Source: a bacterium (GTDB lineage: Bacteria > Patescibacteriota > Minisyncoccia > UBA6257 > MFKM01). Taken from it: a stretch of DNA of 64,000 nt. Below the pieces are notes generated by a model. The model did no database searches. It was not told the origin of the DNA and worked only from the letters and a program-made list of their open reading frames with translations. The position numbers were made by a program, and so were the translations under genes. The stretch covers positions 134,618 through 198,617 of the forward strand of contig JAUYAV010000019.1 in NCBI GenBank assembly GCA_030693325.1. The letters run 5' to 3'. Of the stretch, positions 4,213-63,028 are shown in pieces. Within the stretch, counting starts at the first letter, position 1; every line of letters starts with the position of its first letter.

Positions 4213-4394
4213 GCAAACCAAACTTGCCCTCGAAAATCCCGACTTCGTCGAGGATCCTCGATTTATCGGGACCAGAATAATTTTGCTCCAGCGACAAAAT
4301 TTTCTTTTCCCTCGTTCCGCTGGCTCTCCGCTTCGCTCCGAGGCCAAGCCCAGCGGAACTGCGGGATATTTTCTCAGACAAGTTTGGTTTGCTC
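4213..4394. repeat. GC-rich ~180-bp segment bounded by a 16-bp inverted repeat (gagcaaaccaaacttg / caagtttggtttgctc)
   Basis: Perfect terminal inverted repeats seen directly; internal palindromes (tcgaggatcctcga); no convincing ORF. Confidence 0.5.
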
Positions 4395-9165: not shown

Positions 9166-10218
9166 TTGGCAATGGAAATCATTTTTTTAATCGTTATTTT
9201 ATTGGTTTTATTGGGCGGCTTGGCGCTGATTTTTTGGTTTTTGAAAAATCGTTTAGCAGTGCCGAAAAATGACGAGCAATCTTTGCTGATGATTCAAAAC
9301 CAGATTGGTGAAATTACCAAAACTCTTGATAATAAACTTGGTGAGTCAACTAAAAGTATGCAAAGCCAGTTTGACAGCAGTAGCCGGTTAATCAAAGAAA
9401 TCACCCAGGAACTTACTAAAGTCGGTGAAGGGCAAAAGCAGGTGGTGGATGTCGCAAGGCAGTTGGAGGACCTTCAGGATATTTTAAAGAATCCGAAACA
9501 ACGGGGAAATTTGGGCGAATACTCCCTGGAACTGTTATTGCAGAATTTTTTTCCTCATAATTACGAATCCCAGTATGAATTTAAAGACGGCACGAAAGTT
9601 GATTTTATAATCCGCATTAAGGATAAAATTATCCCGATTGATTCTAAATTCAGTTTGGAAAATTATCAGAGAATTTCAGAAGCTAATGACGAAAACCAAA
9701 AGCAGAAACTGGAAGAAGCTTTTAAAAGCGATATCAAAAAACGCATTGATGAAACGGCTAAATATATCAAGCCGGAAGAAAATACGATGGATTTCGCTTT
9801 TATGTTTATTCCAAGCGAAGCGATTTATTATGACCTTTTAGTTAATAAAATCGGCGCTTTGAAAGTTAATACCCGCGATTTGATAGAGTATGCCACGAGA
9901 GAAAAGAAAGTGATTATCGTTTCGCCAACGTCATTTATAGCTTATCTTCAAACCGTTCTTCAGGGCCTGAAAGCCATGCATATAGAAGAAGAAACGAAGA
10001 CAATTATTAAAAACGTAGAAGAATTAAGACGGCATTTGATCGGTTATGCCGATTTTTCTAAAAAAATAGGAGTGCATCTGGGCACGACCGTTAATATGTA
10101 TAATCAATCACAAAAGGAATTCAAGAAAATAGATAAAGACGTTTTGAGAATTACGGGCAAGGTAGTGGGAGTAGAGCCCTTGAATTTAGAAAGTCCGGAA
10201 AATGAAGACGGAGAATAA
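9166..10218 (+). CDS. rmuC: DNA recombination protein RmuC-like
   Basis: N-terminal TM segment, long coiled coil and an RmuC-type C-terminal domain. Confidence 0.6.
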   Translation: MAMEIIFLIVILLVLLGGLALIFWFLKNRLAVPKNDEQSLLMIQNQIGEITKTLDNKLGESTKSMQSQFDSSSRLIKEITQELTKVGEGQKQVVDVARQLEDLQDILKNPKQRGNLGEYSLELLLQNFFPHNYESQYEFKDGTKVDFIIRIKDKIIPIDSKFSLENYQRISEANDENQKQKLEEAFKSDIKKRIDETAKYIKPEENTMDFAFMFIPSEAIYYDLLVNKIGALKVNTRDLIEYATREKKVIIVSPTSFIAYLQTVLQGLKAMHIEEETKTIIKNVEELRRHLIGYADFSKKIGVHLGTTVNMYNQSQKEFKKIDKDVLRITGKVVGVEPLNLESPENEDGE

Positions 10219-11098
10219 AGTTGAGAAATTTTACGAGCGGCTTGGCAGGCCGTCTGGTGATTTTTCTTTGAAAAGACGCCAGCAGGACGTTCTTTTTGAC
10301 AAAAAGTGGCTGCGGTTTCTGAAACTATCGCATTTTTTCAGGCATTTGCCTTTTATAGATTTTATTTTAGGAGCCGGGTCAATGGCGCTGGGGAATGTCC
10401 ACCAAGATTCGGATTTTGATGTTATTGTTGGAGCAAAATCCGGCAGAATTTTTACGGCCAGATTTTTTTGTATTTTAATGTTCGGTTTATTGGGCCGGCG
10501 CCGCCACGCTAAGCGTGGCTATCTGCCCCGCTCAGCGGGGCGCCAAAAACTTTCACATCGGGAAGCCGCCAGTAATAAAATTTGTTTTAATCATTTTGTC
10601 ACTCCGCGGAGTTATTGCCTGAAACCGCCCCACAATATTTATTGGCGGGAACTTTATCAGAATTTGGTTCCGATTTACGGCCGAAAAGAAAAAATCAGGG
10701 AATTTTTTGAAGCCAATAATTGGATGGGGGAGCGGATTTACCCCGTTAGAAGTTCAGCTAAGTTTTCGGGTTTTTCAACGAACGAAAGCGAATTCGCCTG
10801 CGGCTCCAATTTTTCAAAGAAAAAAGCTTTGTTGAAAACTTCTAACGGGGTTTATTCCGATGACTTGCGCCATGGATTTTATGAGCCGAGTTTTATTGCT
10901 TCTATTTTGGAAAAAATGTTAAGCGGCCGGTTTGGTGATTTTATAGAACGAATATTGAAACAAATTCAAATTAAAAGAATTAAAAAAAGCCCGAAAGACA
11001 GTTTGGGATTTGAGCCGCGAATGGTTTTCAATAATGATGAACTGGAGTTTCATCCCGACACCTTGAGAATCCATAAATTGCTGTCCGATGAAAAGTAA
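10202..11098 (+). CDS. Hypothetical protein with a Pol-beta-like nucleotidyltransferase motif (GS…DSDFDV). It hosts a copy of the GC-rich in-frame element.
   Basis: GAGSMALGNVHQDSDFDVIV; GC-rich palindromic insert at 10498-10545. Confidence 0.4.
   Translation: MKTENKVEKFYERLGRPSGDFSLKRRQQDVLFDKKWLRFLKLSHFFRHLPFIDFILGAGSMALGNVHQDSDFDVIVGAKSGRIFTARFFCILMFGLLGRRRHAKRGYLPRSAGRQKLSHREAASNKICFNHFVTPRSYCLKPPHNIYWRELYQNLVPIYGRKEKIREFFEANNWMGERIYPVRSSAKFSGFSTNESEFACGSNFSKKKALLKTSNGVYSDDLRHGFYEPSFIASILEKMLSGRFGDFIERILKQIQIKRIKKSPKDSLGFEPRMVFNNDELEFHPDTLRIHKLLSDEK
10498..10545. repeat. GC-rich ~48-bp double-hairpin element (GGCGCC-GCCACGCTAAGCGTGGC-TATCT-GCCCCGCTCAGCGGGGC-GCC), in-frame inside the CDS
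   Basis: Near-identical to the reverse complement of 18810-18855 inside fusA. Confidence 0.85.
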
Positions 11099-17412: not shown

Positions 17413-17551
17413 TTGACCCCGTTAGAAGCCTGACGAATCCTAAATTAAGCAACAATCAACAAAGTCCTGTTTAAAATAAAAATTTAATTCAATCTAGAAA
17501 CAGAAAAATTTAATAAATTTTTCTGTTTTAGGGCTTCTAACGGGGTTGACA
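17413..17551. repeat. Family-A palindromic MITE-like element, copy 1 (TIR ACCCCGTTAGAAGCC…GGCTTCTAACGGGGT). Its right end carries a TTGACA -35 box for rpsL.
   Basis: 15-bp terminal inverted repeats and internal hairpin acagaaaaattt…aaatttttctgt; homologous copies at ~22583 and ~58841. Confidence 0.85.
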
Positions 17552-18519: not shown

Positions 18520-18521
18520 AA

Positions 18522-18575
18522 GTAATTACTGTAATTACAGTAATTACAGCAATTACAGCAATTACCGTAATTACT
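18522..18575. repeat. Six tandem 9-bp repeats GTAATTACN in the rpsG–fusA spacer
   Basis: gtaattact gtaattaca gtaattaca gcaattaca gcaattacc gtaattact. Confidence 0.9.
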
Positions 18576-18584
18576 ATTTTTTTT

Positions 18585-20711
18585 ATGCGTCAATATCCTT
18601 TAGAAAAATATCGTGATATCGGCATCATTGCCCACATTGATGCTGGGAAAACAACCGTTTCCGAACGGATTCTTTTTTACACCGGAATTTCCCATAAAAT
18701 CGGCGAGGTTCATACCGGCGATACCGTTATGGACTGGATGGAGCAGGAAAGAGAAAGAGGAATTACGATTACGGCGGCGGCCACGACTTGCTACTGGACC
18801 CCGACTTACGGCGCCCCGCTGAGCGGGGTAGATAGCCACGCTGAGCGTGGCGGCGACGAATACAGAATCAATATTATTGACACTCCGGGCCATATTGATT
18901 TTACCGTTGAAGTTCAGCGTTCACTGAGGGTGCTTGACGGCGGAGTGGTTGTTTTTGACGGCGTGGCGGGAGTGGAGCCGCAGTCGGAAACGGTCTGGCG
19001 TCAGGCGGACAAATACAAAGTGCCGCGGATTTGTTTTGTGAACAAGCTTGACAGGATGGGAGCTGATTTTGAAAAAACTTTACGGTCCATCAGAGAGCGC
19101 TTGCACCCGAAACCGGCAGTGCTTCAGTGGCCTATCGGCCTTGAAGAAAAATTTGAAGGCGTTATTGATTTGTTAAAACGGCAGGCCTTTTATTTTGAAG
19201 GGGATCATGGTGAAAAAATAATTGCTAAAGAAATCCCGGAAAATTTTAAAAAAACGGCTGAAGAAAAAAGAGAAAAATTAGTGGAGATGATTGCCGAAAC
19301 CGATGACAATTTATTACATCGCTATCTTGAAGGCCAGGAAATCAGCCAAGAGGATTTGAAAAAGACGCTAAGAGTTGCCTCCTTAAAAGGAGAATTAATT
19401 CCTGTGCTTTGCGGCAGCGCTTTGAAAAATAAAGGCGTTCAGCTTCTCTTGGACGCGGTTGTTGATTATTTGCCTTCGCCGCTTGATTTGCCGCCGGTAA
19501 AAGGCATTAACCCGGATAATCAAAAAGAAGAAGAAAGGTCAGCTAAAGACGGGCAGCCGTTTGCCGCTCTGGCTTTTAAAATCGCAACCGATCCGTTTGT
19601 GGGCTCGCTGACTTTTTTCCGGGTTTATTCCGGGGTGCTTCAAAAAGGGACTTATGTTTTAAACGTTTCCAAAAATTCTCAGGAAAGAATCGGCCGGATT
19701 TTGCGAATGCACGCCAATCACCGGGAAGAAGTGGATGAAGTTTGCGCGGGCGACCTTGGGGCTTTTGTGGGTTTAAAAAACACCACGACCGGAGATACTC
19801 TTTGCGACCCCGAGCACCCGATTATTTTGGAAAAAATTGTTTTCCCCGAGCCGGTCATTTCTATTCGGATTGAACCGAAAACCAAAGTTGACCAGGAAAA
19901 AATGTCTATGGCTTTGCATAGGCTTTTAGAGGAAGATCCGACTTTCAAAGTGATTGGCGACCCCGATACCGGCGAAACTATTATTTGGGGGATGGGGGAG
20001 CTTCATTTGGAAATTATTGTTGACCGGATGAAACGGGAATTCAGCGTTGAATGCAGTGTCGGCCGGCCTCAAGTGGCTTACAAGGAAACCATAGTTGGAA
20101 CGGCTGAAGCCGAAGGCAAATACATTCGCCAATCCGGCGGTCGCGGTCAATACGGTCATGTCTTTTTGAGAGTGGAACCCTTGGAACGAGGGAAGGGCTT
20201 TGAATTTGTTAATGCTATTAAAGGAGGCACTATTCCCTCGGAATTTATTCCGGCCGCGGAAAAAGGAGTTAAAGAAGCGATGGACAAAGGCGTTTTGGCC
20301 GGCTATCCTTTTGTTGACACCAAAGTCACGCTTTATGACGGTTCTTACCACGATGTTGATTCTTCGGAAGCGGCTTTCAAAATCGCCGGGTCTATCGCTT
20401 TCCAGGAAGCGGTAAAAAGAGCCAAAATGGTTTTACTGGAGCCGATGATGAAAGTTCAGGTGATTACCCCGCCGAATTTCTTGGGCGATGTCACTGGCGA
20501 CCTTAACGCCCGCCGGGGCAAGATTGAGGCCATGACCGAAAGAATTGGAATTAATGTCATTGACGTGAAAGTTCCTTTGTCGGAAATGTTCGGTTATGCC
20601 ACTAATATAAGGTCAATGACCCAGGGCCGCGGCAGTTTCACGATGGAATTTAACAGCTATGAAGAAGTGCCCAATAATATTACTCAGCGGATTGCCGAGG
20701 GCAAAAAATAA
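18585..20711 (+). CDS. fusA: Elongation factor G. It carries a ~12-aa insertion, encoded by the GC-rich element, just before the [11 protein letters not shown]3 motif.
   Basis: [14 protein letters not shown] and full EF-G domains. Confidence 0.97.
18810..18855. repeat. GC-rich double-hairpin element inside fusA, in reverse orientation relative to the copy at 10498
   Basis: ggcgcc-ccgctgagcgggg-tagata-gccacgctgagcgtggc-ggcg encodes [18 protein letters not shown]. Confidence 0.85.
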
Positions 20712-22585: not shown

Positions 22586-22708
22586 ACCCCGTTAGAAGTC
22601 ATGACGAATTCCAAGCTAAATAATTATTAACGGGAATGGAAATTTAATTTATTTTCCAAAAACAGAAAAAATTTTAAAATTTTTTCTGGCCAAGACTTCT
22701 AACGGGGT
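22583..22708. repeat. Family-A palindromic element, copy 2, inserted between rpsJ and rplC
   Basis: CCCCGTTAGAAGTC…GACTTCTAACGGGG with the same internal acagaaaaa/tttttctg hairpin. Confidence 0.85.
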
Positions 22709-22719
22709 TTAAAACAAAT

Positions 22720-23169
22720 ATGAGTTTAATAACAGGAAAAAAATTACAAATGAGCCAGATTTTCAAAGACGGAAAAGTAATTCCGGTTACCCCGATTAAG
22801 GTTGCCGATATTTCGGTTTTTAATGAAGGCGAATTGCTCAAGATAACCGGAATAAGCCGCGGTATAGGATTTCAGGGCGTAGTCAAACGCTGGGGTTTCC
22901 ATGGCGGACCGAAAAGTCATGGGGGTAAACACAGCTTGCGGGCTCCAGGCTCAATCGGCTCAACCGCGCCTCAGCGGGTGTTAAAAGGCAGGAAAATGGC
23001 CGGTCGAACCGGCGGCCGCCAAAAAACCATCGGAAATCTTGAAGTAGTTTCTTTAAATAAAGAAAATGCCGTTTTAATGGTGAAAGGAGCGATACCCGGC
23101 TATAAAAATTCAGAAATTAAAATTCAGAAAGACGCCAGTCATAAAGCATTAAAAAAGAAATTACGGTAA
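22720..23169 (+). CDS. rplC: 50S ribosomal protein L3 (short, 149 aa)
   Basis: L3 N-terminal KKLQMSQIF…GFQGVVKRWGF. Confidence 0.9.
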   Translation: MSLITGKKLQMSQIFKDGKVIPVTPIKVADISVFNEGELLKITGISRGIGFQGVVKRWGFHGGPKSHGGKHSLRAPGSIGSTAPQRVLKGRKMAGRTGGRQKTIGNLEVVSLNKENAVLMVKGAIPGYKNSEIKIQKDASHKALKKKLR

Positions 23170-23199
23170 TTGCCGTAATTACTGTAATTACAGTAATTT
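23170..23199. repeat. Three tandem TTAC[AT]GTAA 9-mers in the rplC–rplD spacer
   Basis: ttgccgtaattactgtaattacagtaattta. Confidence 0.85.
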
Positions 23200-23202
23200 A
23201 AT

Positions 23203-23841
23203 ATGAAAGCGGATTTATTCAATCAAAAAAACGAAAAAATTGGAACAGTGGAATTACCCGAAGCCGTTTTTGGCGTTAAATTTAATTCGGACTTGGTTCA
23301 TCAAGTATTGACGGTCCAGGTCGCTAATCGCCGAAGAACCTTAGCCGACACAAAAGACAGAGGCGAAGTCAGAGGCGGCGGTAAGAAGCCCTGGAAGCAA
23401 AAAGGCACGGGCCGGTCAAGGCAGGGTTCAAGCCGTTCACCTTTATGGAAAGGCGGCGGGGTCACTTTTGGTCCTCAAAAAGAAAGAAATTTTTCCAGAA
23501 GTATAAATCAAAAAATGAAGCAATTGGCGATTTTCGGAATTTTTTCCAAAAAATTAGCCGATCAGGAAATTAAAATTATTGACACTTTGAATTTGGAAGA
23601 CCGCAAGACCAAAAAATTAGCCGAGCTGTTGAAAAAATTTATTACGCCCAAGGAAAGCGTTTTATTGATTCCCGCCAACGAAAACAAAATTATTTATTTG
23701 GCCGGGCGAAATTTGCCCAAAGTCGGCGTTATGAGTCCCGAGTCGCTCAATGTTTACGATTTGCTGAAATATAGAAAAATTCTTTTGGACCAAACCGCCG
23801 TTGAATCAATAGTTAAACATTATAAATTAATCAGTAATTAA
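23203..23841 (+). CDS. rplD: 50S ribosomal protein L4
   Basis: L4 family; position in the operon. Confidence 0.93.
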   Translation: MKADLFNQKNEKIGTVELPEAVFGVKFNSDLVHQVLTVQVANRRRTLADTKDRGEVRGGGKKPWKQKGTGRSRQGSSRSPLWKGGGVTFGPQKERNFSRSINQKMKQLAIFGIFSKKLADQEIKIIDTLNLEDRKTKKLAELLKKFITPKESVLLIPANENKIIYLAGRNLPKVGVMSPESLNVYDLLKYRKILLDQTAVESIVKHYKLISN

Positions 23842-23859
23842 GTAATTACAGTAATTACA
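23842..23859. repeat. Two tandem GTAATTACA 9-mers in the rplD–rplW spacer
   Basis: gtaattacagtaattaca. Confidence 0.8.
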
Positions 23860-38147: not shown

Positions 38148-38219
38148 GGGTGTGTAGTTCAGTGGTAGAACGCTGTCCTGATAAGACAGAGGTCGGAGGT
38201 TCGATCCCTCCCACACCCA
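38148..38219 (+). tRNA. tRNA-Ile (anticodon GAT)
   Basis: Manual fold: acceptor GGGUGUG/CACACCC; anticodon loop CUGAUAA; T-loop GGTTCGATCC; no encoded CCA. Confidence 0.75.
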
Positions 38220-38261
38220 CTGGAAGAGTTCATTAATAATTCAGTTAAAAAGGAGGAAAGG

Positions 38262-38867
38262 ATGAAACGGATTAGAGCTTATTTTTACGCGGGAATAATT
38301 TTAGTTTTGCCTTTGGGGTTATTGCTGTTTATTTTATCCTGTTTGGTAAAGATTTTTAAAAATATTTCTTCGGCAATCGGTTTAAAGACGGTCATTTTCA
38401 GCTTGGTAGCAAAATTGCCGTTGCCTTCGTTTTTATTGGCAACCGGAGAATGGTTAGAATGGTTGTTGATTGCCGTTAGTATCGCGGCAATTCTGATATT
38501 TTTGGGATGGTTCAGTTCAAAAATAGGGAAAAGAATAATTGAGTTTTTAGAAAGGGCGATTAAAAAAATTCCGCTGATTGGCTCTCTCTATTTTACTTTT
38601 AGAGAAACGGCGAAACTCACTCTTAAAGAAAAAAAGGCCTTTAGGGAGGTAGTCAAGGTGCAAGTTATTGAGGGAATCCAGAGTATCGGGTTTGTGGTCC
38701 AGAGAAAGGATACAAAGGTAGTTGTTTTTATTCCTTTTGTTCCAAATCCCTTAACTGGCATCACGATTATTGTTGATAGTAGTCTGGTTATTCCTACAGG
38801 TTTAAGCGTTGAAGAAGGAATGAGATGGATGATCAGTTTTGGCGCCTCTCCTGATTTATTATCCTGA
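38262..38867 (+). CDS. Membrane protein (DUF502-like)
   Basis: Two N-terminal TM helices plus a soluble domain; strong SD AAGGAGGA. Confidence 0.4.
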   Translation: MKRIRAYFYAGIILVLPLGLLLFILSCLVKIFKNISSAIGLKTVIFSLVAKLPLPSFLLATGEWLEWLLIAVSIAAILIFLGWFSSKIGKRIIEFLERAIKKIPLIGSLYFTFRETAKLTLKEKKAFREVVKVQVIEGIQSIGFVVQRKDTKVVVFIPFVPNPLTGITIIVDSSLVIPTGLSVEEGMRWMISFGASPDLLS

Positions 38868-38932
38868 TATATCAAGCGAATCCCGCCAGTTCATGATGGA
38901 CTGGTGGGATTTTTTATTTTAAAATTATATCT

Positions 38933-39415
38933 ATGATTCTTTTCGCCCACGTTGTTTTCGCCGATGCCGTCAGTTCCGCGGGAAATTTTCCTTGGCCGAT
39001 GGCTTTTTTGTTCGGTTTAATATCCCATCATTTGTTGGATTTCATTCCTCATCTTGACGCCGGTTGTGTCTGGCCGGAAAAAGACAGAGATGCCGGCACA
39101 ATGCCCAAAGCAGTTGTAATTTTTATTGCCGCTGACGCTTTATTGACATTGGGGTTTTTAATTTGGTGCGCTTTTTTTCTGAAAATAAATTGGGCTATTT
39201 TGTTCTGGGCGAGTTTTGGCGCGGCTTTGCCGGATTTAATCGTCACCGGCTTTCCTTTTTTCATTCCTAAAATTAAATCTTGGCCATGGGTGAAAAAATA
39301 TGAAAAATTCCACTATAGCCTTTTTGACCACTTAGGCATTTCCACTAATTGGATTTTTGGCATTTTTAGCACTATATTGATAATCGGAGTTTCTTTTTGG
39401 TTGTTGCTGAAATAA
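38933..39415 (+). CDS. Hypothetical polytopic membrane protein
   Basis: Four or five hydrophobic helices. Confidence 0.4.
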   Translation: MILFAHVVFADAVSSAGNFPWPMAFLFGLISHHLLDFIPHLDAGCVWPEKDRDAGTMPKAVVIFIAADALLTLGFLIWCAFFLKINWAILFWASFGAALPDLIVTGFPFFIPKIKSWPWVKKYEKFHYSLFDHLGISTNWIFGIFSTILIIGVSFWLLLK

Positions 39416-39419
39416 ACAG

Positions 39420-39491
39420 GGGCCCGTAGTTCAGTGGTAGAACGCCTCATTTGCAATGAGGAGATCAGCGGTTCGATCCCGCTCGGGTCCA
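39420..39491 (+). tRNA. tRNA-Ala (anticodon TGC) with the G3:U70 identity pair
   Basis: Manual fold: GGGCCCG…CGGGUCC acceptor with G3·U70; anticodon loop UUUGCAA. Confidence 0.8.
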
Positions 39492-39602
39492 CAGGAACAA
39501 AGATTATTTCTTCCCAATTTTATGCTGTGGATAACTTGCTTTGGACTTTCTATTTACTTTCTAGTATACTGAAGCTGATAGTGAAAAGTTAATCCACACA
39601 TT

Positions 39603-41078
39603 ATGCTTACTAAACGCCAAAAACAAATTCTCGATTTTATTACCGACTATCAAAAACGAAAAAGGTATGCCCCCACTCTTGAAGATATATGCAAAAAATT
39701 TAAACTTGCATCGGTTTCAACGGCTCATTTTCATATTTCCAAACTTCGTGATTTGGGATATTTAACGAAGGAAGAAAACAAGCCTCGTTCCATCTCTGTT
39801 TCGAAACACGAGCAAATGGTTAAAATCCCTCTTTTGGGGACCATTGCCGCCGGACAACCAATTGAAGCAATCCAAAACAAAGAAATGATTGCGGTTCCCA
39901 AAAGTATGCTTCCACGTTCGTCGGAAGTATACGCGCTCCGCGTTGTTGGAAATAGTATGATTGACGAGAATATCAACGACGGCGATATCGTTTTAGTAAG
40001 ACAACAAGAAACAGCGGAGAATGGGCAAAAGGTCGTGGCGCTTATTGATAACCACGAAGCAACGCTCAAAAAGTATTATCAAGAGCGAGGACATATTCGC
40101 CTACAACCAGCTAATAAAAATATGGAGCCGATCATATTGCGAAATGGTCGGGATATTTCCATACAAGGAATAGTGCTTGATGTGATCAGAGATGCTGGCA
40201 CAGCTACTCTTAAGAAAGAACAAGTGAAAATGTATTCCGATACAAAACTATTAAAAAATACGCTTATATCTAAACCATATTATGAAAAACCAAAATTCAA
40301 ACTTTACCAAGCAAACTGCTTGGACATTCTTGCCAAACTTTCTGAAAATTCTGTTGATATGATTTTTGCCGATCCCCCCTATAATCTTTCAAACGGAGGC
40401 ATTACCGTTCACGCTGGACGAATGGTTAGCGTCAATAAAGGAGATTGGGACAAGAGCAAGGGATTCAAAGATGATTACGATTTTCATTACAAATGGATAG
40501 ATGCCTGTCGGAGAGTTTTAAAACCCCATGGTACACTTTGGGTTAGTGGCACTTACCATTCAATTTATCAATGCGGTTATGCTTTGCAGTCACTTGGATA
40601 CCAAATTCTAAACGATGTCGCTTGGTTCAAACCAAACGCATCGCCGAATTTAAGTTGCCGATATTTTACGGCAAGCCATGAAACTTTACTTTGGGCGAGA
40701 AAGGATAAAAAGGCAAAACATATTTTCAATTATGCTTTAATGAAAAATGGCAACTGGCCGGAAGATCAGCTAAAAAAACCAGGGCTTCAAATGCGTTCGG
40801 TTTGGGCGATGGGAACACCGAAAACAATTGAAAAAAGATTTGGAAAACATCCTACGCAAAAACCGGAAGATTTACTAAAACGAATCGTGCTTGCCTCAAC
40901 TAACAAGGGCGATTTAGTTGTTGATCCATTCACTGGAAGTTCAACAACTGGAATTGCCGCCTATCTTTTGGGACGGCACTTTATCGGTGTTGATACTGAA
41001 CCAAAGTATTTGGATGTATCAATAAAGCGATTTGAGGAATTGGATCGCAATCTAAAAAATAAATACAAAAAAGTATGA
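39603..41078 (+). CDS. Fusion protein: a full LexA-like repressor (wHTH, Ala-Gly cleavage site, S24 Ser/Lys peptidase) joined to a beta-class N6-adenine (DPPY) DNA methyltransferase
   Basis: LexA part: LGTIAAGQP, VVGNSM and ATLKKY. MTase part: IFADPPYNLS (motif IV) followed by VVDPFTGSSTTG (motif I). Confidence 0.8.
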   Translation: MLTKRQKQILDFITDYQKRKRYAPTLEDICKKFKLASVSTAHFHISKLRDLGYLTKEENKPRSISVSKHEQMVKIPLLGTIAAGQPIEAIQNKEMIAVPKSMLPRSSEVYALRVVGNSMIDENINDGDIVLVRQQETAENGQKVVALIDNHEATLKKYYQERGHIRLQPANKNMEPIILRNGRDISIQGIVLDVIRDAGTATLKKEQVKMYSDTKLLKNTLISKPYYEKPKFKLYQANCLDILAKLSENSVDMIFADPPYNLSNGGITVHAGRMVSVNKGDWDKSKGFKDDYDFHYKWIDACRRVLKPHGTLWVSGTYHSIYQCGYALQSLGYQILNDVAWFKPNASPNLSCRYFTASHETLLWARKDKKAKHIFNYALMKNGNWPEDQLKKPGLQMRSVWAMGTPKTIEKRFGKHPTQKPEDLLKRIVLASTNKGDLVVDPFTGSSTTGIAAYLLGRHFIGVDTEPKYLDVSIKRFEELDRNLKNKYKKV

Positions 41079-43088: not shown

Positions 43089-44216
43089 ATGGAGCCGTTA
43101 GCATCAAAAATAAGACCGAAAATTTTGGAAGAATTTGTCGGTCAGGAGCATTTAGTCGGAGAAGGAAAGCCTTTTAATATAGCTATAAAACAAAAGCATT
43201 TGTTTTCTTTTATTTTATGGGGGCCTCCTGGAACCGGAAAAACTACTTTGGCCAAGATATATGCCAATAGTCTGAACGCAAAAATTTATGAATTGTCCGC
43301 GGTTTCGGCCGGAAAAGCGGATATCAGAAAAATACTAGAAGAAGACTCGGACGGAGTTCCTAAAGTTTTATTTTTAGACGAAATACATCGCTTTAATAAA
43401 TCCCAGCAGGACTTTCTGCTTCCTTATGTTGAAAGAGGGGAGATAATTTTGATTGGCGCCACTACCGAAAATCCGAGTTTTGAAGTGATATCGGCTTTGC
43501 TTTCCCGATGCCGAGTTTTCGTTTTAAATGAACTTTCAGAAAATAACATAAAGGCCATTATTAAAAGAACCGGAATGAAAATGGATGAAGCGGCGGAAGA
43601 TTGGCTGGTAAATGCGGCCAATGGCGATGCCAGACAAGTAATAACTTTGTTGGAAAACACCAGCGAACTTTATAAAAAGATTACGGTGGAAAATTTAAAA
43701 AACGTTCTCCAATCAAAGTTTTTGAGATACGACAAAGTCGGGGAAGAACATTACAACACTATTTCCGCCTTTATCAAAAGCATGAGAGCGAGCCAGCCTG
43801 ATGCGGCTTTGTATTATTTGGCTCGGATGATTGATTCCGGCGAAGACCCAAAATTTATAGCCAGAAGAATGGTTATTTTTGCTTCCGAGGATATTGGTTT
43901 GGCTCAGCCCACAGCCTTAGTAGTGGCTAATGATGTTTTTCGGGCCGTGGAAATAATCGGTCTGCCCGAATGCGGTATTAATTTGGCTCACGGAGTAGCT
44001 CATCTGTGCCAGTGTAAAAAAGACAGAAGAGCCCATGATGCTTATATGGAAGCGATGGAAGACGTAAAAAATTTCGGCAATCTTCCTATCCCTTTAAGTT
44101 TGCGGAATCCTGAGACAAAATTAATGAAAGATTTAAATTACGGCAAAGGATACGAAAAATATTCCAAGGAATCTTTTCTGCCCGAAAAATTAAAAGGAAA
44201 AAAATATTTAAAATAA
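43089..44216 (+). CDS. rarA: Replication-associated recombination protein RarA/MgsA (AAA+)
   Basis: WGPPGTGKTTLA; FLDEIHRFNKSQQD; MgsA C-terminal helical domain. Confidence 0.9.
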   Translation: MEPLASKIRPKILEEFVGQEHLVGEGKPFNIAIKQKHLFSFILWGPPGTGKTTLAKIYANSLNAKIYELSAVSAGKADIRKILEEDSDGVPKVLFLDEIHRFNKSQQDFLLPYVERGEIILIGATTENPSFEVISALLSRCRVFVLNELSENNIKAIIKRTGMKMDEAAEDWLVNAANGDARQVITLLENTSELYKKITVENLKNVLQSKFLRYDKVGEEHYNTISAFIKSMRASQPDAALYYLARMIDSGEDPKFIARRMVIFASEDIGLAQPTALVVANDVFRAVEIIGLPECGINLAHGVAHLCQCKKDRRAHDAYMEAMEDVKNFGNLPIPLSLRNPETKLMKDLNYGKGYEKYSKESFLPEKLKGKKYLK

Positions 44217-47200
44217 TGCCCCTGAATCTGGAAAAACTTAATAAAGAGCAAAAAGAAGCCGTGGTTCATGGCCAGGGGCCGCTTTTGATTGTGGCCGGAG
44301 CCGGAACCGGCAAAACGACGGTTATCACCCAGAGAATAGTTAATTTAATTGAAAAGGAGAAAGTTAAACCTGAAGAAATATTGGCCGTCACTTTTACCGA
44401 AAAGGCGGCCGCGGAAATGGAAGAAAGGGTTGATATTCTTTTGCCTTATGGCTATGTGGATTTGTGGATTTCCACTTTCCATTCTTTCTGCGAAAGGGTC
44501 TTGCGCGATTACGCTTTGGATATCGGCTTGCCGGCGGATTTTAAGATTTTAGACAACACGGCCGGCTGGCTTTTGGTTTATCGCAATCTGGAAAAATTCA
44601 ATCTCGATTATTACAAACCCCTGGGGAATCCGACCAAATTTATCCAGGCCCTGATTTCTCATTTTTCCCATTGCAAAGACCAGGCGATTTATCCCGAAGA
44701 TTATTTAAAATACGCCGAAAAGCTGAAAACCCGGGATGACGCGCCGGAAGAAAATGAAACCGAGAGGATAAAAGAAGTGGCGAACGCTTACCATGTTTAT
44801 CAGCGTTTGCTTTTGGAGAACAGTTCTCTGGATTTTGGCGATTTGATAAATTATTGTTTGAAATTGTTTCAGAAAAGGCCGCTGATTTTGAAAAAATATC
44901 GGGAAAAATTCAAATACATTTTAGTTGACGAATTTCAGGACACCAACTGGGCGCAATACGAGCTTATAAAAATCTTAGCGGCGCCGAAAAATAATCTGAC
45001 CGTCTGTGCCGACGATGACCAATGTTTGCCGGGCAATTCAAAAATAGAGATTTTTGAGAACGATAAAATCAAAATAAAGGAAATTAAAAAAATTGAAATA
45101 GGCGATAAAGCATTAACAGCCGTAGGAAAAGGTCATATAGGGGTTGCTAATGTGAATAATGTTTTCGTCAAAAACAAGAGGGCAAAGATATTAACCGTTA
45201 AAACAGAAGGCGGCTATTCAGTAAGCGTGACAGATAATCATAAAATGTTTTGCTGTGTTCCAAGAACTGCTCGGCAGAATTATCATTATGTTTATTTGAT
45301 GTTTAGAAAAAATTTGGGGTGGAGGATAGGGGTAACTGATGATTTAATTTTGCGGCTTAGGATAGAGCGTTCGGCAGATAAAATTTTGGCAATAAGGGCC
45401 TTTAACACTGATTCTGAAGCGAGATATCACGAAACATTGTGGTCGTTGAAGTACGGCATACCCACTTGTTGTTTTAAAAGCAGGGAAGGCATCGTTATCA
45501 AAGAAAATGAGTTGGCTAAATTATATAAGGAAATTAATACCGAAGATAATATACGGAAATTAGCTCAAGATTTAAATATTGACTTAGATTCGCCCCATTA
45601 TTGTCTAGATGCCGTTAACAGGGGAAGAAGCGTCAGGATAATCATCAATTTGCAAATGTGCTACAGAAATTACCGAAGCAAGGAACACGTCAGAAGCGAG
45701 AAAACTCTGCTTTTGAATGGCTTGACAAGGCACAGGCTTTATTTGGAAACGTCAGACAAGCAAACAATTAAGAAGCTAAAAACAGCAGGATATATTCTTT
45801 ATAAAGCGAGGAAAGGAATGAAATTAAACATAGAAGGAGGCGATGTAAAAGATCTTGAAGGAAAAGCAAGAGCGATAGAAAAAATTACAGGCGGATTCAT
45901 AGAATATAAATTTAATGTTGCGAGCAAATACAGCAAGCCGTCAGGCACGGCACGAAATTATATGTCTTTGATTATGCCCGCAAAAAATTTAGTTTTAGGA
46001 CACTATCTTCCGGTAAAAAAAGGCGCTGAGATAATTTACGATAAAATAATTTCAATTAAAGAAGTTGATAAAAAAATAAAAGTATATGATTTGGAAATCG
46101 ACAAAACCCATAATTTTATAGCCAACGGAATAGTGGTCCACAATTCTGTTTATAGGTGGAGAGGGGCATCTTATAGCAACATAGTCCAATTCAATAAAGA
46201 TTTCCCGAAAGCCGAGCAAATTTCTTTGGTTAAAAATTACCGGTCCGGCCAGAATATTTTGGATTTGGCTTATAAATTCATAAAAGCCAATAATCCCGAC
46301 CGCCTTGAATACGTAAATAAAATAAACAAGGAATTAATCGCCCAGGAAAAAGGTGAAGGCAAAATAGAGCATATTTTGGCGAAGAACCTGGAAGAAGAAG
46401 TTGATAAAACAATAAAGAAGATCTTAGGGATTCTTAAAAAAGACAAAGACGCCGGTTATAACGATTTTGCGATTTTAGTCAGAGCCAATGACGCGGCCAA
46501 TCCTTTTATTAAGGCCCTGGAGCGCGCGGGCTTGCCTTATCAATTTTTGGCTTCAAGAGGGCTTTATTCAAAGCCGGTTATTTTGGACGTAATCTCATAT
46601 TTCAAACTTTTGGATAATTACCACGAGAGCCCGGCGGTTTACCGGATCTTGAATATGCCATTTTTGGAAATCCCGCCCGCGGATATTATGAAGCTTACTC
46701 AATACAGCCACAAAAAAACAAAGTCGCTTTATGAGGCGATGGAAGAGCTTCCTCTAATTCCGGGAATTTCTCCGGAAGTTCAGGAAAAAATCCTTTTCGT
46801 TTTGAGCTTGATTAAAAAACACGCCATTTTTGCCAAAGAAAAATCGGTCTCGGAAATAATGATTGCATTTCTTAAAGAGTCGGGATATATAAAATATTTA
46901 ACGAAAAAAGACGACAAAGAACAGTTTGATTTACTCAATCAATTCCATAAAAAAGTGAAGAATTTTGAGAGTGCGGCAATAGAGCCGACTTTAGGCAATT
47001 TTATGCGGGAAATAAATCTTGAGATAGAATCCGGCGAAGAAGGAAAGCTTGAATTTGACCCCGAGCAAGGCCCGGACATGATAAAAATAATGACTATCCA
47101 CGGAGCTAAGGGCTTGGAATTCAAATATGTTTTTTTGGTTAATATGGTGGATAAAAGATTTCCGACAATGGAAAGAAAGGATTTAATTGAGCTACCCGAA

Positions 47201-48298
47201 GATTTAATCAAAGACATAAAGCCAACTGGGGATGTTCATTTGCAGGAAGAAAGGCGCATTTGCTATGTGGCCATTACCAGAGCCAAGAAAGATATTTATT
47301 TCACTTCGGCTGAAGATTATGGCGGGGTGAGAAAAAAGAAATTGTCTCGCTTTCTGATTGAAATGGGATACCAGGAAAAAACTGAAAAACCGAAAAACTT
47401 AAAAACTCAAAACGAAATGCTCGCGGAGAAACCGATTTCGGTCGGGACAAAAAACAAGCCGATGCCGGATTATCTGCCGAAACATTTTTCGTATTCGCAA
47501 TTGGCGGCTTTTGACAAGTGTCCGTTGCAGTATAAATTCGCTTTTATTCTGAAGGTTCCGACCAGAGGCAAGGCCGTGTTTTCTTTCGGGAAGACGATGC
47601 ATAATACTTTTTATGAATTTTTAAAATACGCCAACGAAGGCAGCGCGAGCAATCAAACAAATTTGTTCGGGTTTGAAGAAAAAACAATTAAGGCCGGTAA
47701 AAAAGCCCTGTCTGCCGGCAGGCATGAAAAATCTTTAGATTTAGACGATTTAACGGAAATTTATGAGAAAAACTGGATTGACGAATGGTATGAGAGTAAA
47801 AAACAAAAAGAGGATTATCGCAAGCTCGGCAGGAAAATAATTAAAGATTTTTATGATGAATTTGTAAAAAATCCGCCGAAAGTTTTAAAAATCAATAATG
47901 CCTTTGCTTTGGAAATGCCGTTTAACCTGAAAATAGGGGGATATGCCTTATACGGCGTGGTGGACAGAATTGATGAAGAGGATGGTGGCGTGACCATCAT
48001 TGATTACAAAACAGGAAATTCTAAAGACAAGCTGTATCCGGGCGATAAAGAACAATTGTTGATTTATCAGATAGCGGCTGAAGAGATATTCAAACTAAAG
48101 CCCCAAAAATTGGCTTATCATTATTTAACCGACGGCAAGAAAGCGTCTTTTCTCGGAACGGAAAAAGAGAAAGAACAGCTGAAAGAAAAAATAATCCAAG
48201 AGATTGAAGAAATAAAAGGCAGTGATTTCAAGGCGAAGCCGAGTCAGCTTTGCGCTTTCTGCGATTTCAAGGATATTTGCGATTCCGCTCAGAGATAG
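44216..48298 (+). CDS. UvrD/PcrA-family helicase fused to a C-terminal RecB/Cas4-like PD-(D/E)xK nuclease (AddA-like). It is interrupted by an intein in helicase motif III.
   Basis: AGAGTGKTT; DEFQDTN; …CADDDQ|C…HN|SVYRWRGAS; C-terminal IIDYKTG and CAFCDFKDICD. Confidence 0.9.
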   Translation: MPLNLEKLNKEQKEAVVHGQGPLLIVAGAGTGKTTVITQRIVNLIEKEKVKPEEILAVTFTEKAAAEMEERVDILLPYGYVDLWISTFHSFCERVLRDYALDIGLPADFKILDNTAGWLLVYRNLEKFNLDYYKPLGNPTKFIQALISHFSHCKDQAIYPEDYLKYAEKLKTRDDAPEENETERIKEVANAYHVYQRLLLENSSLDFGDLINYCLKLFQKRPLILKKYREKFKYILVDEFQDTNWAQYELIKILAAPKNNLTVCADDDQCLPGNSKIEIFENDKIKIKEIKKIEIGDKALTAVGKGHIGVANVNNVFVKNKRAKILTVKTEGGYSVSVTDNHKMFCCVPRTARQNYHYVYLMFRKNLGWRIGVTDDLILRLRIERSADKILAIRAFNTDSEARYHETLWSLKYGIPTCCFKSREGIVIKENELAKLYKEINTEDNIRKLAQDLNIDLDSPHYCLDAVNRGRSVRIIINLQMCYRNYRSKEHVRSEKTLLLNGLTRHRLYLETSDKQTIKKLKTAGYILYKARKGMKLNIEGGDVKDLEGKARAIEKITGGFIEYKFNVASKYSKPSGTARNYMSLIMPAKNLVLGHYLPVKKGAEIIYDKIISIKEVDKKIKVYDLEIDKTHNFIANGIVVHNSVYRWRGASYSNIVQFNKDFPKAEQISLVKNYRSGQNILDLAYKFIKANNPDRLEYVNKINKELIAQEKGEGKIEHILAKNLEEEVDKTIKKILGILKKDKDAGYNDFAILVRANDAANPFIKALERAGLPYQFLASRGLYSKPVILDVISYFKLLDNYHESPAVYRILNMPFLEIPPADIMKLTQYSHKKTKSLYEAMEELPLIPGISPEVQEKILFVLSLIKKHAIFAKEKSVSEIMIAFLKESGYIKYLTKKDDKEQFDLLNQFHKKVKNFESAAIEPTLGNFMREINLEIESGEEGKLEFDPEQGPDMIKIMTIHGAKGLEFKYVFLVNMVDKRFPTMERKDLIELPEDLIKDIKPTGDVHLQEERRICYVAITRAKKDIYFTSAEDYGGVRKKKLSRFLIEMGYQEKTEKPKNLKTQNEMLAEKPISVGTKNKPMPDYLPKHFSYSQLAAFDKCPLQYKFAFILKVPTRGKAVFSFGKTMHNTFYEFLKYANEGSASNQTNLFGFEEKTIKAGKKALSAGRHEKSLDLDDLTEIYEKNWIDEWYESKKQKEDYRKLGRKIIKDFYDEFVKNPPKVLKINNAFALEMPFNLKIGGYALYGVVDRIDEEDGGVTIIDYKTGNSKDKLYPGDKEQLLIYQIAAEEIFKLKPQKLAYHYLTDGKKASFLGTEKEKEQLKEKIIQEIEEIKGSDFKAKPSQLCAFCDFKDICDSAQR
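45023..46144 (+). mobile_element. Intein (~374 aa) with a putative, degenerate homing-endonuclease core
   Basis: Cys1 (CLPGNSKI); block B TDNHKM; C-terminal VVHN followed by Ser+1; the extein motif III DDDQ/SVYRWRGA is restored on excision. Confidence 0.8.
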
Positions 48299-58840: not shown

Positions 58841-58973
58841 CACCCCGTTAGAAGTCTGGTTCATGTTTAATAATGATTATTATTTTAATTAAAAATTCAT
58901 ATTTGATTAACCTATCTGTTATGACAGAAAAATTTCTATAGAAATTTTTCTGTTCAAGACTTCTAATGGGGTT
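58841..58973. repeat. Family-A palindromic element, copy 3, filling the gap between the dnaE stop and the thrS start
   Basis: CCCCGTTAGAAGTC…GACTTCTAATGGGG with the internal acagaaaaattt…aaatttttctgt hairpin. Confidence 0.85.
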
Positions 58974-62967: not shown

Positions 62968-62996
62968 GTTTCTAATTACTAATTACTCAATTACTA
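62968..62996. repeat. Four tandem TAATTAC 7-mers upstream of rpmF
   Basis: taattactaattactcaattactaattac. Confidence 0.8.
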
Positions 62997-63028
62997 ATTA
63001 CTTAAATTTTGAGCAAAGCGAAAAATTT

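Follow-up and report, generated by a model that had tools for sequence, protein, structure and literature searches.

Elongation factor G (EF-G) is an essential GTPase of translation, and the question raised by the locus studied here is how a palindromic DNA element came to stand inside its G domain and what becomes of the residues that it encodes. The locus belongs to a stretch of 64,000 nucleotides (nt) from an uncultured bacterium of the candidate phyla radiation (CPR; Patescibacteria), namely positions 134,618 to 198,617 of contig JAUYAV010000019.1 in GenBank assembly GCA_030693325.1, which was analysed as a whole and is called the window. In its EF-G gene, fusA, a GC-rich double hairpin of 39 nt occupies 13 codons close to the G3 motif. 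An earlier sequence-only reading of the same DNA had pointed to this insert and had offered two fates for it, either a tolerated surface loop or removal at the level of the RNA or the protein. In this study, the fusA element was compared with the empty sites of related EF-G genes, with a second copy in an unrelated gene of the window and with related elements in other genomes and metagenomes. We consider it very probable that a small repeat, selfish or neutral, is translated here and tolerated by the protein, and the element is a small CPR variant of the known phenomenon of in-frame palindromic repeats.

A precise 39-nt insertion in fusA

The product of fusA matches a protein named elongation factor G at 100% identity, and its Pfam domains (GTP_EFTU, EF-G_D2/GTP_EFTU_D2, EFG_III, EFG_IV and EFG_C) make up the five-domain architecture of EF-G, with intact G motifs, NKLD included, and with E-values of about 1e-70 for the N-terminal 172 amino acids (aa) against solved EF-Gs. 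The gene order around it, rpsL-rpsG-fusA-tuf-rpsJ, is the canonical context of the str operon, and the annotations of the closest EF-Gs (Patescibacteria, Jorgensenbacteria, Brennerbacteria and Harrisonbacteria) are those of an uncultured CPR host.

The element consists of two tandem GC-rich hairpins, each with a 7-bp stem and a TGA loop, which differ from one another by a single compensated base pair, C-G to A-T (Table 1). None of 200 shuffled sequences folded as stably as the hairpins did as RNA. Since the two halves are palindromes of nearly the same sequence, an alternative fold of the 46-nt region is a single long imperfect hairpin. The GC content reaches 68% in the local loop, against 47% in fusA. 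The 13 codons are placed in frame past the end of strand beta2 (...AATTCYW) and before the strand that leads to the G3 motif, and the peptide that they encode is rich in glycine, serine, proline and charged residues. Only one of the three forward frames of this copy is open, and EF-G uses exactly that frame. The sequence and position of the palindromic insert next to G3 are as the sequence-only reading described them, and the extra residues do correspond to the GC-rich element. That reading was also right in finding the loop longer here, but its figures of about 22 residues, against about 10 in E. coli EF-G, are slightly low; we count 25 residues between ITITAAATT and the following strand, and about 13 in the solved gamma-proteobacterial EF-Gs. 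In Logan, run SRR13727537 has been assembled independently, and the result agrees with the window at every one of 15,120 nt, insert included, so that an artefact of assembly can be dismissed.

Among the 120 closest EF-Gs, the insert peptide is present in the identical protein only. The nearest relatives (86-90% identity, 695-696 aa), to which the earlier reading had looked for a check, lack it and read CYW(T/K)PTYGG(D/E/A)E(H/Y)R, which is the EF-G of the window minus 13 codons; at the DNA level, TAC GGC (39 nt) GGC GAC in the window stands against TAY GGY GGC GA at six orthologous loci. The motif GGCG is found twice at the junction of the filled site and once in the empty sites. The junction can be placed anywhere within 4 nt, and it is because of this GGCG direct repeat that the element boundaries slide by up to 4 nt. 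Conservation of the residues across CPR EF-Gs, which the earlier reading had named as the observation that would count against its proposal, was looked for, and the residues turned out to be unique to this genome. A search with the 41-aa loop segment for other EF-Gs sharing the insert returned one irrelevant match from four candidates and was uninformative either way. The comparison of filled and empty sites indicates that the fusA element is a recent and precise insertion, gained after the split from the closest sequenced relatives.

Small repeats of another kind lie close to the gene. Several spacers between genes of the str/S10 ribosomal operons contain an AT-rich palindrome of 9 nt, AGTAATTAC, repeated in tandem three to six times (18521-18574, 23159-23198, 23832-23859 and also 62972-63002); one such array lies directly between rpsG and fusA.

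Table 1. Coordinates of the fusA element, its second copy and their host genes (positions in the window)
Feature	Position	Strand	Basis or remark
fusA, elongation factor G (708 aa, full length), host of the insert	18585..20711	+	ORF; Pfam; gene order
39-nt double-hairpin element GCCCCGCTGAGCGGGGTAGATAGCCACGCTGAGCGTGGC, in frame	18813..18851	+	encodes EF-G residues 77-89
Hairpin 1, GCCCCGC-TGA-GCGGGGT (last pair G-T/G-U)	18813..18829	+	fold of -12.3 kcal/mol as RNA
Hairpin 2, GCCACGC-TGA-GCGTGGC	18835..18851	+	fold of -11.4 kcal/mol as RNA
GGCG direct repeat, left copy; target heptamer GGCGGCG split here	18810..18813	+	filled versus empty sites
GGCG direct repeat, right copy	18849..18852	+	filled versus empty sites
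Second copy (37/39 identical), in frame, 13 residues encoded	10503..10541	-	repeat match and homologue alignment
Host of the second copy, conserved CPR hypothetical protein without Pfam match	10202..11098	+	homologues

Position of the insert in the protein

The insert lies in the G domain, at the tip of its beta2-beta3 (interswitch) hairpin. In a Ras-like G domain, strand beta3 leads into the DxxG motif at the nucleotide, and the beta2-beta3 turn therefore lies at the end of the sheet opposite the GTP pocket. The length of this turn is highly variable: the stretch from GITI to DTPGH measures 26-55 residues across the 120 closest EF-Gs, CPR EF-Gs have from about 6 to about 35 residues at the loop site, and in yeast eEF2 the corresponding loop counts 22. 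In the N-terminal 170 residues, solved bacterial EF-Gs fall short of the present protein by 12-19 residues, with the gap exactly at the insert. Structural modelling of the loop, another check that had been proposed, gave an AlphaFold2 model (built on 42 EF-Gs) in which strands at residues 66-71 and 93-100 enclose an unstructured loop of low confidence, residues 78-89 having a pLDDT below 50. A hypervariable loop, a gap in solved EF-Gs and low predicted confidence between two strands point to a structurally permissive surface position, and the tolerated surface loop of the sequence-only reading is supported by them.

Other lineages have gained residues at this turn as well. Sister lineages with EF-Gs 88-89% identical carry unrelated inserts at the same codon position, with four ACGCAGA direct repeats in one (P0007) and a CGCGC...GCGCG hairpin in the other (P0002), and more distant CPR EF-Gs carry other hairpin-rich inserts at the same loop position, which suggests that the EF-G loop is an insertion hot spot or a uniquely permissive site. 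The loop inserts recorded in other CPR EF-G genes (L112 1574-3694, L111 3001-5130, L114, L115 and L116) comprise the fourfold ACGCAGA repeat (QINADLDADQRRK), the CGCGC/GCGCG hairpin, a GCCCTTCGACAAGCTCAGGGC-type element (GPSTSSGQA) and GGCTCC/GGAGCC hairpins.

A second copy in an unrelated gene

The 39-mer has a second match in the window, with two mismatches, in a gene unrelated to fusA and in the opposite orientation. Such a recurrence was expected 0.00 times in 100 shuffles, and the match is therefore not due to chance. Here too the insert is a presence or absence of exactly 13 residues, being absent from 15 of the 18 aligned homologues, and its carriers are the protein of the window, a truncated duplicate record of that protein and one protein from a Paceibacterota metagenome-assembled genome (MAG; locus L003). 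A homologue without the insert (L123/L124) differs in its DNA by a clean 39 nt, and its empty site GGCGC/CGCC becomes GGCG^GCG in the orientation of the element. Read in this orientation, the empty sites are TTTTGGCG^GCGCC for the second copy and TATGGCG^GCGAC for fusA. Both insertions share the same (T)GGCGGCG target, split as GGCG^GCG, with GGCG on either side. Four further TGGCGGCG sites in the window stand unoccupied.

The second copy of the window and that of L003 are identical at 39 of 39 positions, between flanks that are already 89-98% identical, so that no constraint is claimed. The EF-G loci compared come from genomes other than the L003 MAG, which limits the relative dating of the two insertions. 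The preserved frames carry little weight by themselves, since the chance of an open frame for both window copies alone is about 0.22, and the open-frame tally of intragenic metagenome copies is biased, these copies having been found through spanning open reading frames (ORFs).

The host of the second copy has also received a member of another, unrelated repeat family. This family is about 110-130 bp long and has perfect or near-perfect 14-bp terminal inverted repeats, CCCCGTTAGAAGTY..., in the manner of a classical miniature inverted-repeat transposable element (MITE); matches to the arm number 8 in the window against 0.48 expected, and copies lie at 10741-10850 (within ORF 10202..11098), 17417-17545, 22587-22707 and 58843-58971. 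The first of these, which amounts to 114 nt with its TTTA duplication, gives an in-frame insert of 38 aa (YPVRSS...SNGV) that only one homologue (P0122) shares, and the other three occupy spacers among the ribosomal-protein genes or a gene end. With this MITE-like copy in the host gene, the entry of small repeats into genes in frame is seen to recur in the lineage. Further homologues of ORF 10202..11098 (P0127, P0129, P0130, P0132 and P0133) have other short lineage-specific inserts (PACRTGRASAGK, GLRHAEAGSGLAKA and GFDHAER) that resemble translated GC-rich palindromes; small repeats seem to land frequently in this gene family.

Distribution of the wider family

Related elements were found well beyond the window. 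A pattern scan of one genome per species recovered seven intact double hairpins, all of them in CPR MAGs (Saccharibacteria, Amesbacteria, Staskawiczbacteria and Paceibacterota), and a looser pattern applied to the JGI metagenomes returned 102 stretches, the family being present in about 80 metagenome loci. The majority of the copies are intergenic, such as those of L005, between secA and the next gene, and of L038, a hairpin cluster past a gene end. Several copies adjoin tRNA genes, at the 3' ends of tRNA-Asn and tRNA-Met and at the 5' end of tRNA-Cys (L001 7021-7128, L074 10349-10456, L002 6852-6958, L027 8358-8463 and L066 866-971), and in these the CCA of the tRNA (as hairpin CCA/TGG) or its first bases form part of hairpin 2 and of the direct repeat. 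In L004, 12 nt of the tRNA-Asn 3' end are repeated beside a second element copy on the same contig. A phage vector was considered and set aside, as IMG/VR yielded a single match to the element.

Few copies lie in frame within real genes. The clearest is found in the arginyl-tRNA synthetase (ArgRS) of L032, identified by the domains Arg_tRNA_synt_N, tRNA-synt_1d and DALR_1, where the 39-nt unit encodes DPAKRGKSHAERG in the catalytic domain and matches a 13-residue gap in the alignment with the solved ArgRS 3fnr. Precise presence and absence with the frame kept is seen in fusA, in the second gene of the window and in this ArgRS. Of the 75 related elements that were checked without bias, none splits a gene into two frames and none adds a stop within a gene; two candidates for split genes that would need bypass, L005 and L038, were both found to be intergenic.

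Perfect direct repeats of 4-6 nt with the form (T)GGCNN flank 18 of the 33 distinct C-type and A-type elements, the repeat unit measuring 38-39 nt. The mean length of the direct repeat is 2.88, against 1.05 in 2000 shuffles of the flanks (shuffle maximum 1.94), though this length is not fixed and part of the repeat forms the stem of hairpin 2. At the variable stem position, C-G pairs were counted 135 times, A-T pairs 40 times and mismatches 4 times, with a search pattern that admitted all four base combinations. Across the copies compared, this covariation shows that the dyad symmetry is maintained, which would fit a single-stranded hairpin and a palindromic duplex site alike. In metagenome contigs, the hairpin motifs CCCCGCTNAGCGGGG or CCACGCTNAGCGTGG are also found arranged head to tail, repeating every 19, 20 or 24 nt (L043 193-306, L049 656-708, L065 11224-11286, L077 11702-11787 and L094 5166-5228).

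Other explanations of the insert

The alternative that survives best, unlikely as it is, holds that the insert is functional, with the loop tuning the interaction between EF-G and the ribosome, or with the hairpins of the mRNA acting as a pause, an RNA-stability element or a processing site in the str operon. Long conserved loops are indeed kept at this site by some CPR EF-G clades, for example the 713-aa class with ...EKQKIRQ..., but the insert studied here occurs in one genome only, all close relatives lack it, and it therefore gives no sign of retention by selection. Stem pairing is strongly maintained across the element family, an observation that the needs of a mobilising machinery or of a palindrome-binding protein would explain equally well. 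Where related copies directly follow tRNA genes and the ends of genes, they could serve as 3'-end structures of the RNA; at the fusA element, however, no terminator-like site and no U-tract was found, and the same sequence occurs in the opposite orientation, with a different peptide, in an unrelated gene. An Rfam scan of the window and of seven element-bearing loci detected tRNAs only, the element itself matching no known RNA family.

Removal of the 39 nt by programmed translational bypass or by another process at the RNA level is very improbable. The ribosome would take off at the GGC before hairpin 1 and land on the GGC that ends hairpin 2, which would restore the ancestral ...TYGGDEY... sequence. 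Matching GGC codons do flank the 39 nt, with a stable hairpin beginning directly 3' of the first, matching CGC codons likewise flank the second copy, and bacteriophage T4 gene 60 uses matched glycine take-off and landing codons together with a take-off hairpin (PMC5462505). The gap of gene 60 and the mitochondrial byp elements resemble the fusA element as short hairpin-forming inserts in an essential gene between matching codons, yet they differ in being untranslated gaps with a stop or undecodable codon after take-off, for which a length of 3n is not needed, and bypass in gene 60 depends on a stop codon directly behind the take-off codon and on a signal in the nascent peptide (PMC5462505). 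With a direct repeat of 4 nt at its two ends, the element brings matched codons automatically. In fusA, the putative take-off codon is followed by an ordinary GCC, and the 39 nt form an open, in-phase frame of 13 codons (3n) without a stop, in place of an untranslatable gap. The absence of split genes among the 75 related elements also argues against bypass. A group I or group II intron is excluded by size, 39 nt being far too small, and the predicted fold has no bulge-helix-bulge. The specific proposal that the double hairpin is a bypass cassette, in which peptidyl-tRNA(Gly) detaches at GGC 18810-18812, slides past both hairpins and re-pairs at GGC 18849-18851, is slightly less credible again; if it were true, wild-type EF-G would be made fully or partly, and such elements could colonise essential CPR genes.

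The possibility that there was no insertion at all, the loop being ancestral and lost in the relatives or the product of an assembly or sequencing error, is hardly tenable. Chimeric joins can occur in MAG-derived sequence, but the 39-mer recurs in an unrelated gene, relatives at several distances share the short site, the independent assembly is identical over 15 kb, and the orthologue of the second copy is found in another MAG (L003). Least credible of all is intein-like splicing of the 13 residues: although an intein exists elsewhere in the window (44216..48298), the insert is about a tenth the size of the smallest inteins, whose Hint fold takes at least about 130 aa, it begins with Ala and not Cys or Ser, ends with Gly and without the C-terminal His-Asn, is followed by Gly instead of the +1 nucleophile Cys, Ser or Thr, and the Pfam domains reported for EF-G include neither Hint nor an intein domain. 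The second fate offered by the sequence-only reading, removal at the RNA or protein level, is left without support by these observations.

Comparison with known systems

Repeats that enter genes in frame are known from the Rickettsia palindromic elements (RPEs), which were reportedly described by Ogata et al. in 2000 and 2002. As summarised in PMC10969869, RPEs are repeats of about 100-150 bp, and they resemble the fusA element as repeated palindromic selfish DNA that lies in frame in unrelated housekeeping genes, is translated into extra peptides at fold-compatible positions and is absent from the orthologues of relatives. They differ in forming Rickettsia-specific families of 100-150 bp, whereas the fusA element has 39 bp (13 aa), two hairpins with 7-bp stems, a CPR host and a (T)GGC target with a short direct repeat. 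The element does not belong to any of the families RPE-1 to RPE-10, its size and host being different and its sequence unrelated, and it only behaves like an RPE. Literature searches on intragenic palindromic repeats in CPR genomes, made within one searchable library, found nothing directly relevant.

REP/BIME sequences and REPINs, which are mobilised by RAYT transposases of the IS200/IS605-like Y1 type, are GC-rich imperfect palindromes of 20-40 nt that are often paired, mostly extragenic and of high copy number, with a GTAG-type tetranucleotide. These, and elements derived from IS200/IS605, are similar to the fusA element in size, in a hairpin conserved over primary sequence and in a sequence-specific target at the hairpin foot. 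The fusA-type element differs by its 4-6-nt direct repeat, whereas IS200/IS605 transposition makes none, and within the window it does not qualify as a REP/RAYT system, with two copies in 64 kb, both intragenic, and no match of the Y1_Tnp type. Very small dispersed repeats of cyanobacteria ('nanoMITEs'), reportedly the subject of Elhai et al. in 2008, are said to be mobile-looking hairpin repeats of a few tens of bases that lie within genes and within other repeats, in which they are alike, but they belong to another host phylum and have another sequence. With respect to a MITE, the whole element can be folded as one imperfect inverted repeat and a direct repeat of 4-6 nt is frequent, although of variable length and partly contained in the stem of hairpin 2. 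Natural variation of the beta2-beta3 loop in EF-G and EF2, as in yeast eEF2, affects the same site, but it is a lineage-conserved feature of the protein and not the recent insertion of a DNA element.

The favoured reading and its limits

In the reading that we favour, that of a tolerated selfish or neutral repeat, fusA would have gained 39 nt, namely a pair of similar GC-rich hairpins together with a short spacer and one additional copy of the GGCG target repeat. The element would then be transcribed and translated with fusA, because it is 13 codons long and landed in the only stop-free frame, and would add 13 residues at the distal beta2-beta3 turn, where it would be tolerated because the loop length already varies widely in EF-G and EF2. 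We infer that the peptide is actually present in EF-G. The effect of the insert is most likely neutral or slightly deleterious and not functional, the 13 residues being harmless. The repeat nature of the element is seen in its occurrence at unrelated loci, with two copies in the window and relatives in other CPR genomes and in metagenomes. On the manner of spread we are more reserved. The element may be mobilised, now or formerly, in trans by an enzyme that recognises the hairpins and a TGGC-type target, and spread by transposition in trans is a serious candidate to which we give slightly less than even chances. Equally tentative is the proposal of an undescribed, ultra-small and CPR-specific mobile family, in which a core of about 33-34 bp would be joined by a TGGC-type target duplication of 5-6 bp that completes hairpin 2, and which would target tRNA CCA ends and GGC-rich codons.

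Several points weigh against this reading as a whole or against parts of it. The presence of the peptide in mature EF-G is itself something that we infer. The window holds two copies only in its 64 kb, and just one intact copy was found in the genome of a close relative, so that active mobility in this genome is no more than a possibility. A Pfam scan of 30 window ORFs detected no transposase, the Y1_Tnp type included, and the direct repeat could have arisen by microhomology-templated insertion instead of transposition. Switch I and switch II of this essential GTPase lie on either side of the insert, which may have a functional effect. Finally, the AlphaFold2 model is of moderate quality (mean pLDDT 72.8, pTM 0.56), and the probable position of the loop relative to the ribosome is drawn from the general topology of G domains.

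Other features of the window

The intein mentioned above belongs to a UvrD/AddA-like helicase-nuclease of 1360 aa and covers residues of about 264-643 (Pfam Intein_splicing and Hint). A single ORF at 39603-41078 combines LexA DNA-binding, Peptidase_S24 and N6_N4 DNA methyltransferase domains, which is an unusual fusion. Genes for tRNA-Ile(GAT) and tRNA-Ala(TGC) lie 1.2 kb apart at 38148-39492 with two protein ORFs between them, the usual site of this pair being the rRNA spacer; no rRNA was detected in the window by Rfam at gathering thresholds. Just past pilin-like genes, a GC-rich inverted repeat, TTCCGCTGG ... CCAGCGGAA, is found at 4309-4365 and may be another small palindromic element or a terminator.

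Implications

The fusA element indicates that, in the reduced genomes of the CPR, very small hairpin repeats colonise an essential translation factor in frame and reach even its G domain. The phenomenon was first seen with the Rickettsia palindromic elements and is met here at about a third of their size. The beta2-beta3 loop of EF-G emerges as a natural permissive site that different repeats have hit independently in sister lineages, which makes it useful for engineering tags into EF-G. The shared (T)GGCGGCG target, together with the copies at tRNA ends, offers a handle for finding a putative mobilising enzyme. For the study of CPR proteins in general, the finding is a warning that short lineage-specific loops may be derived from repeats and not adaptive.

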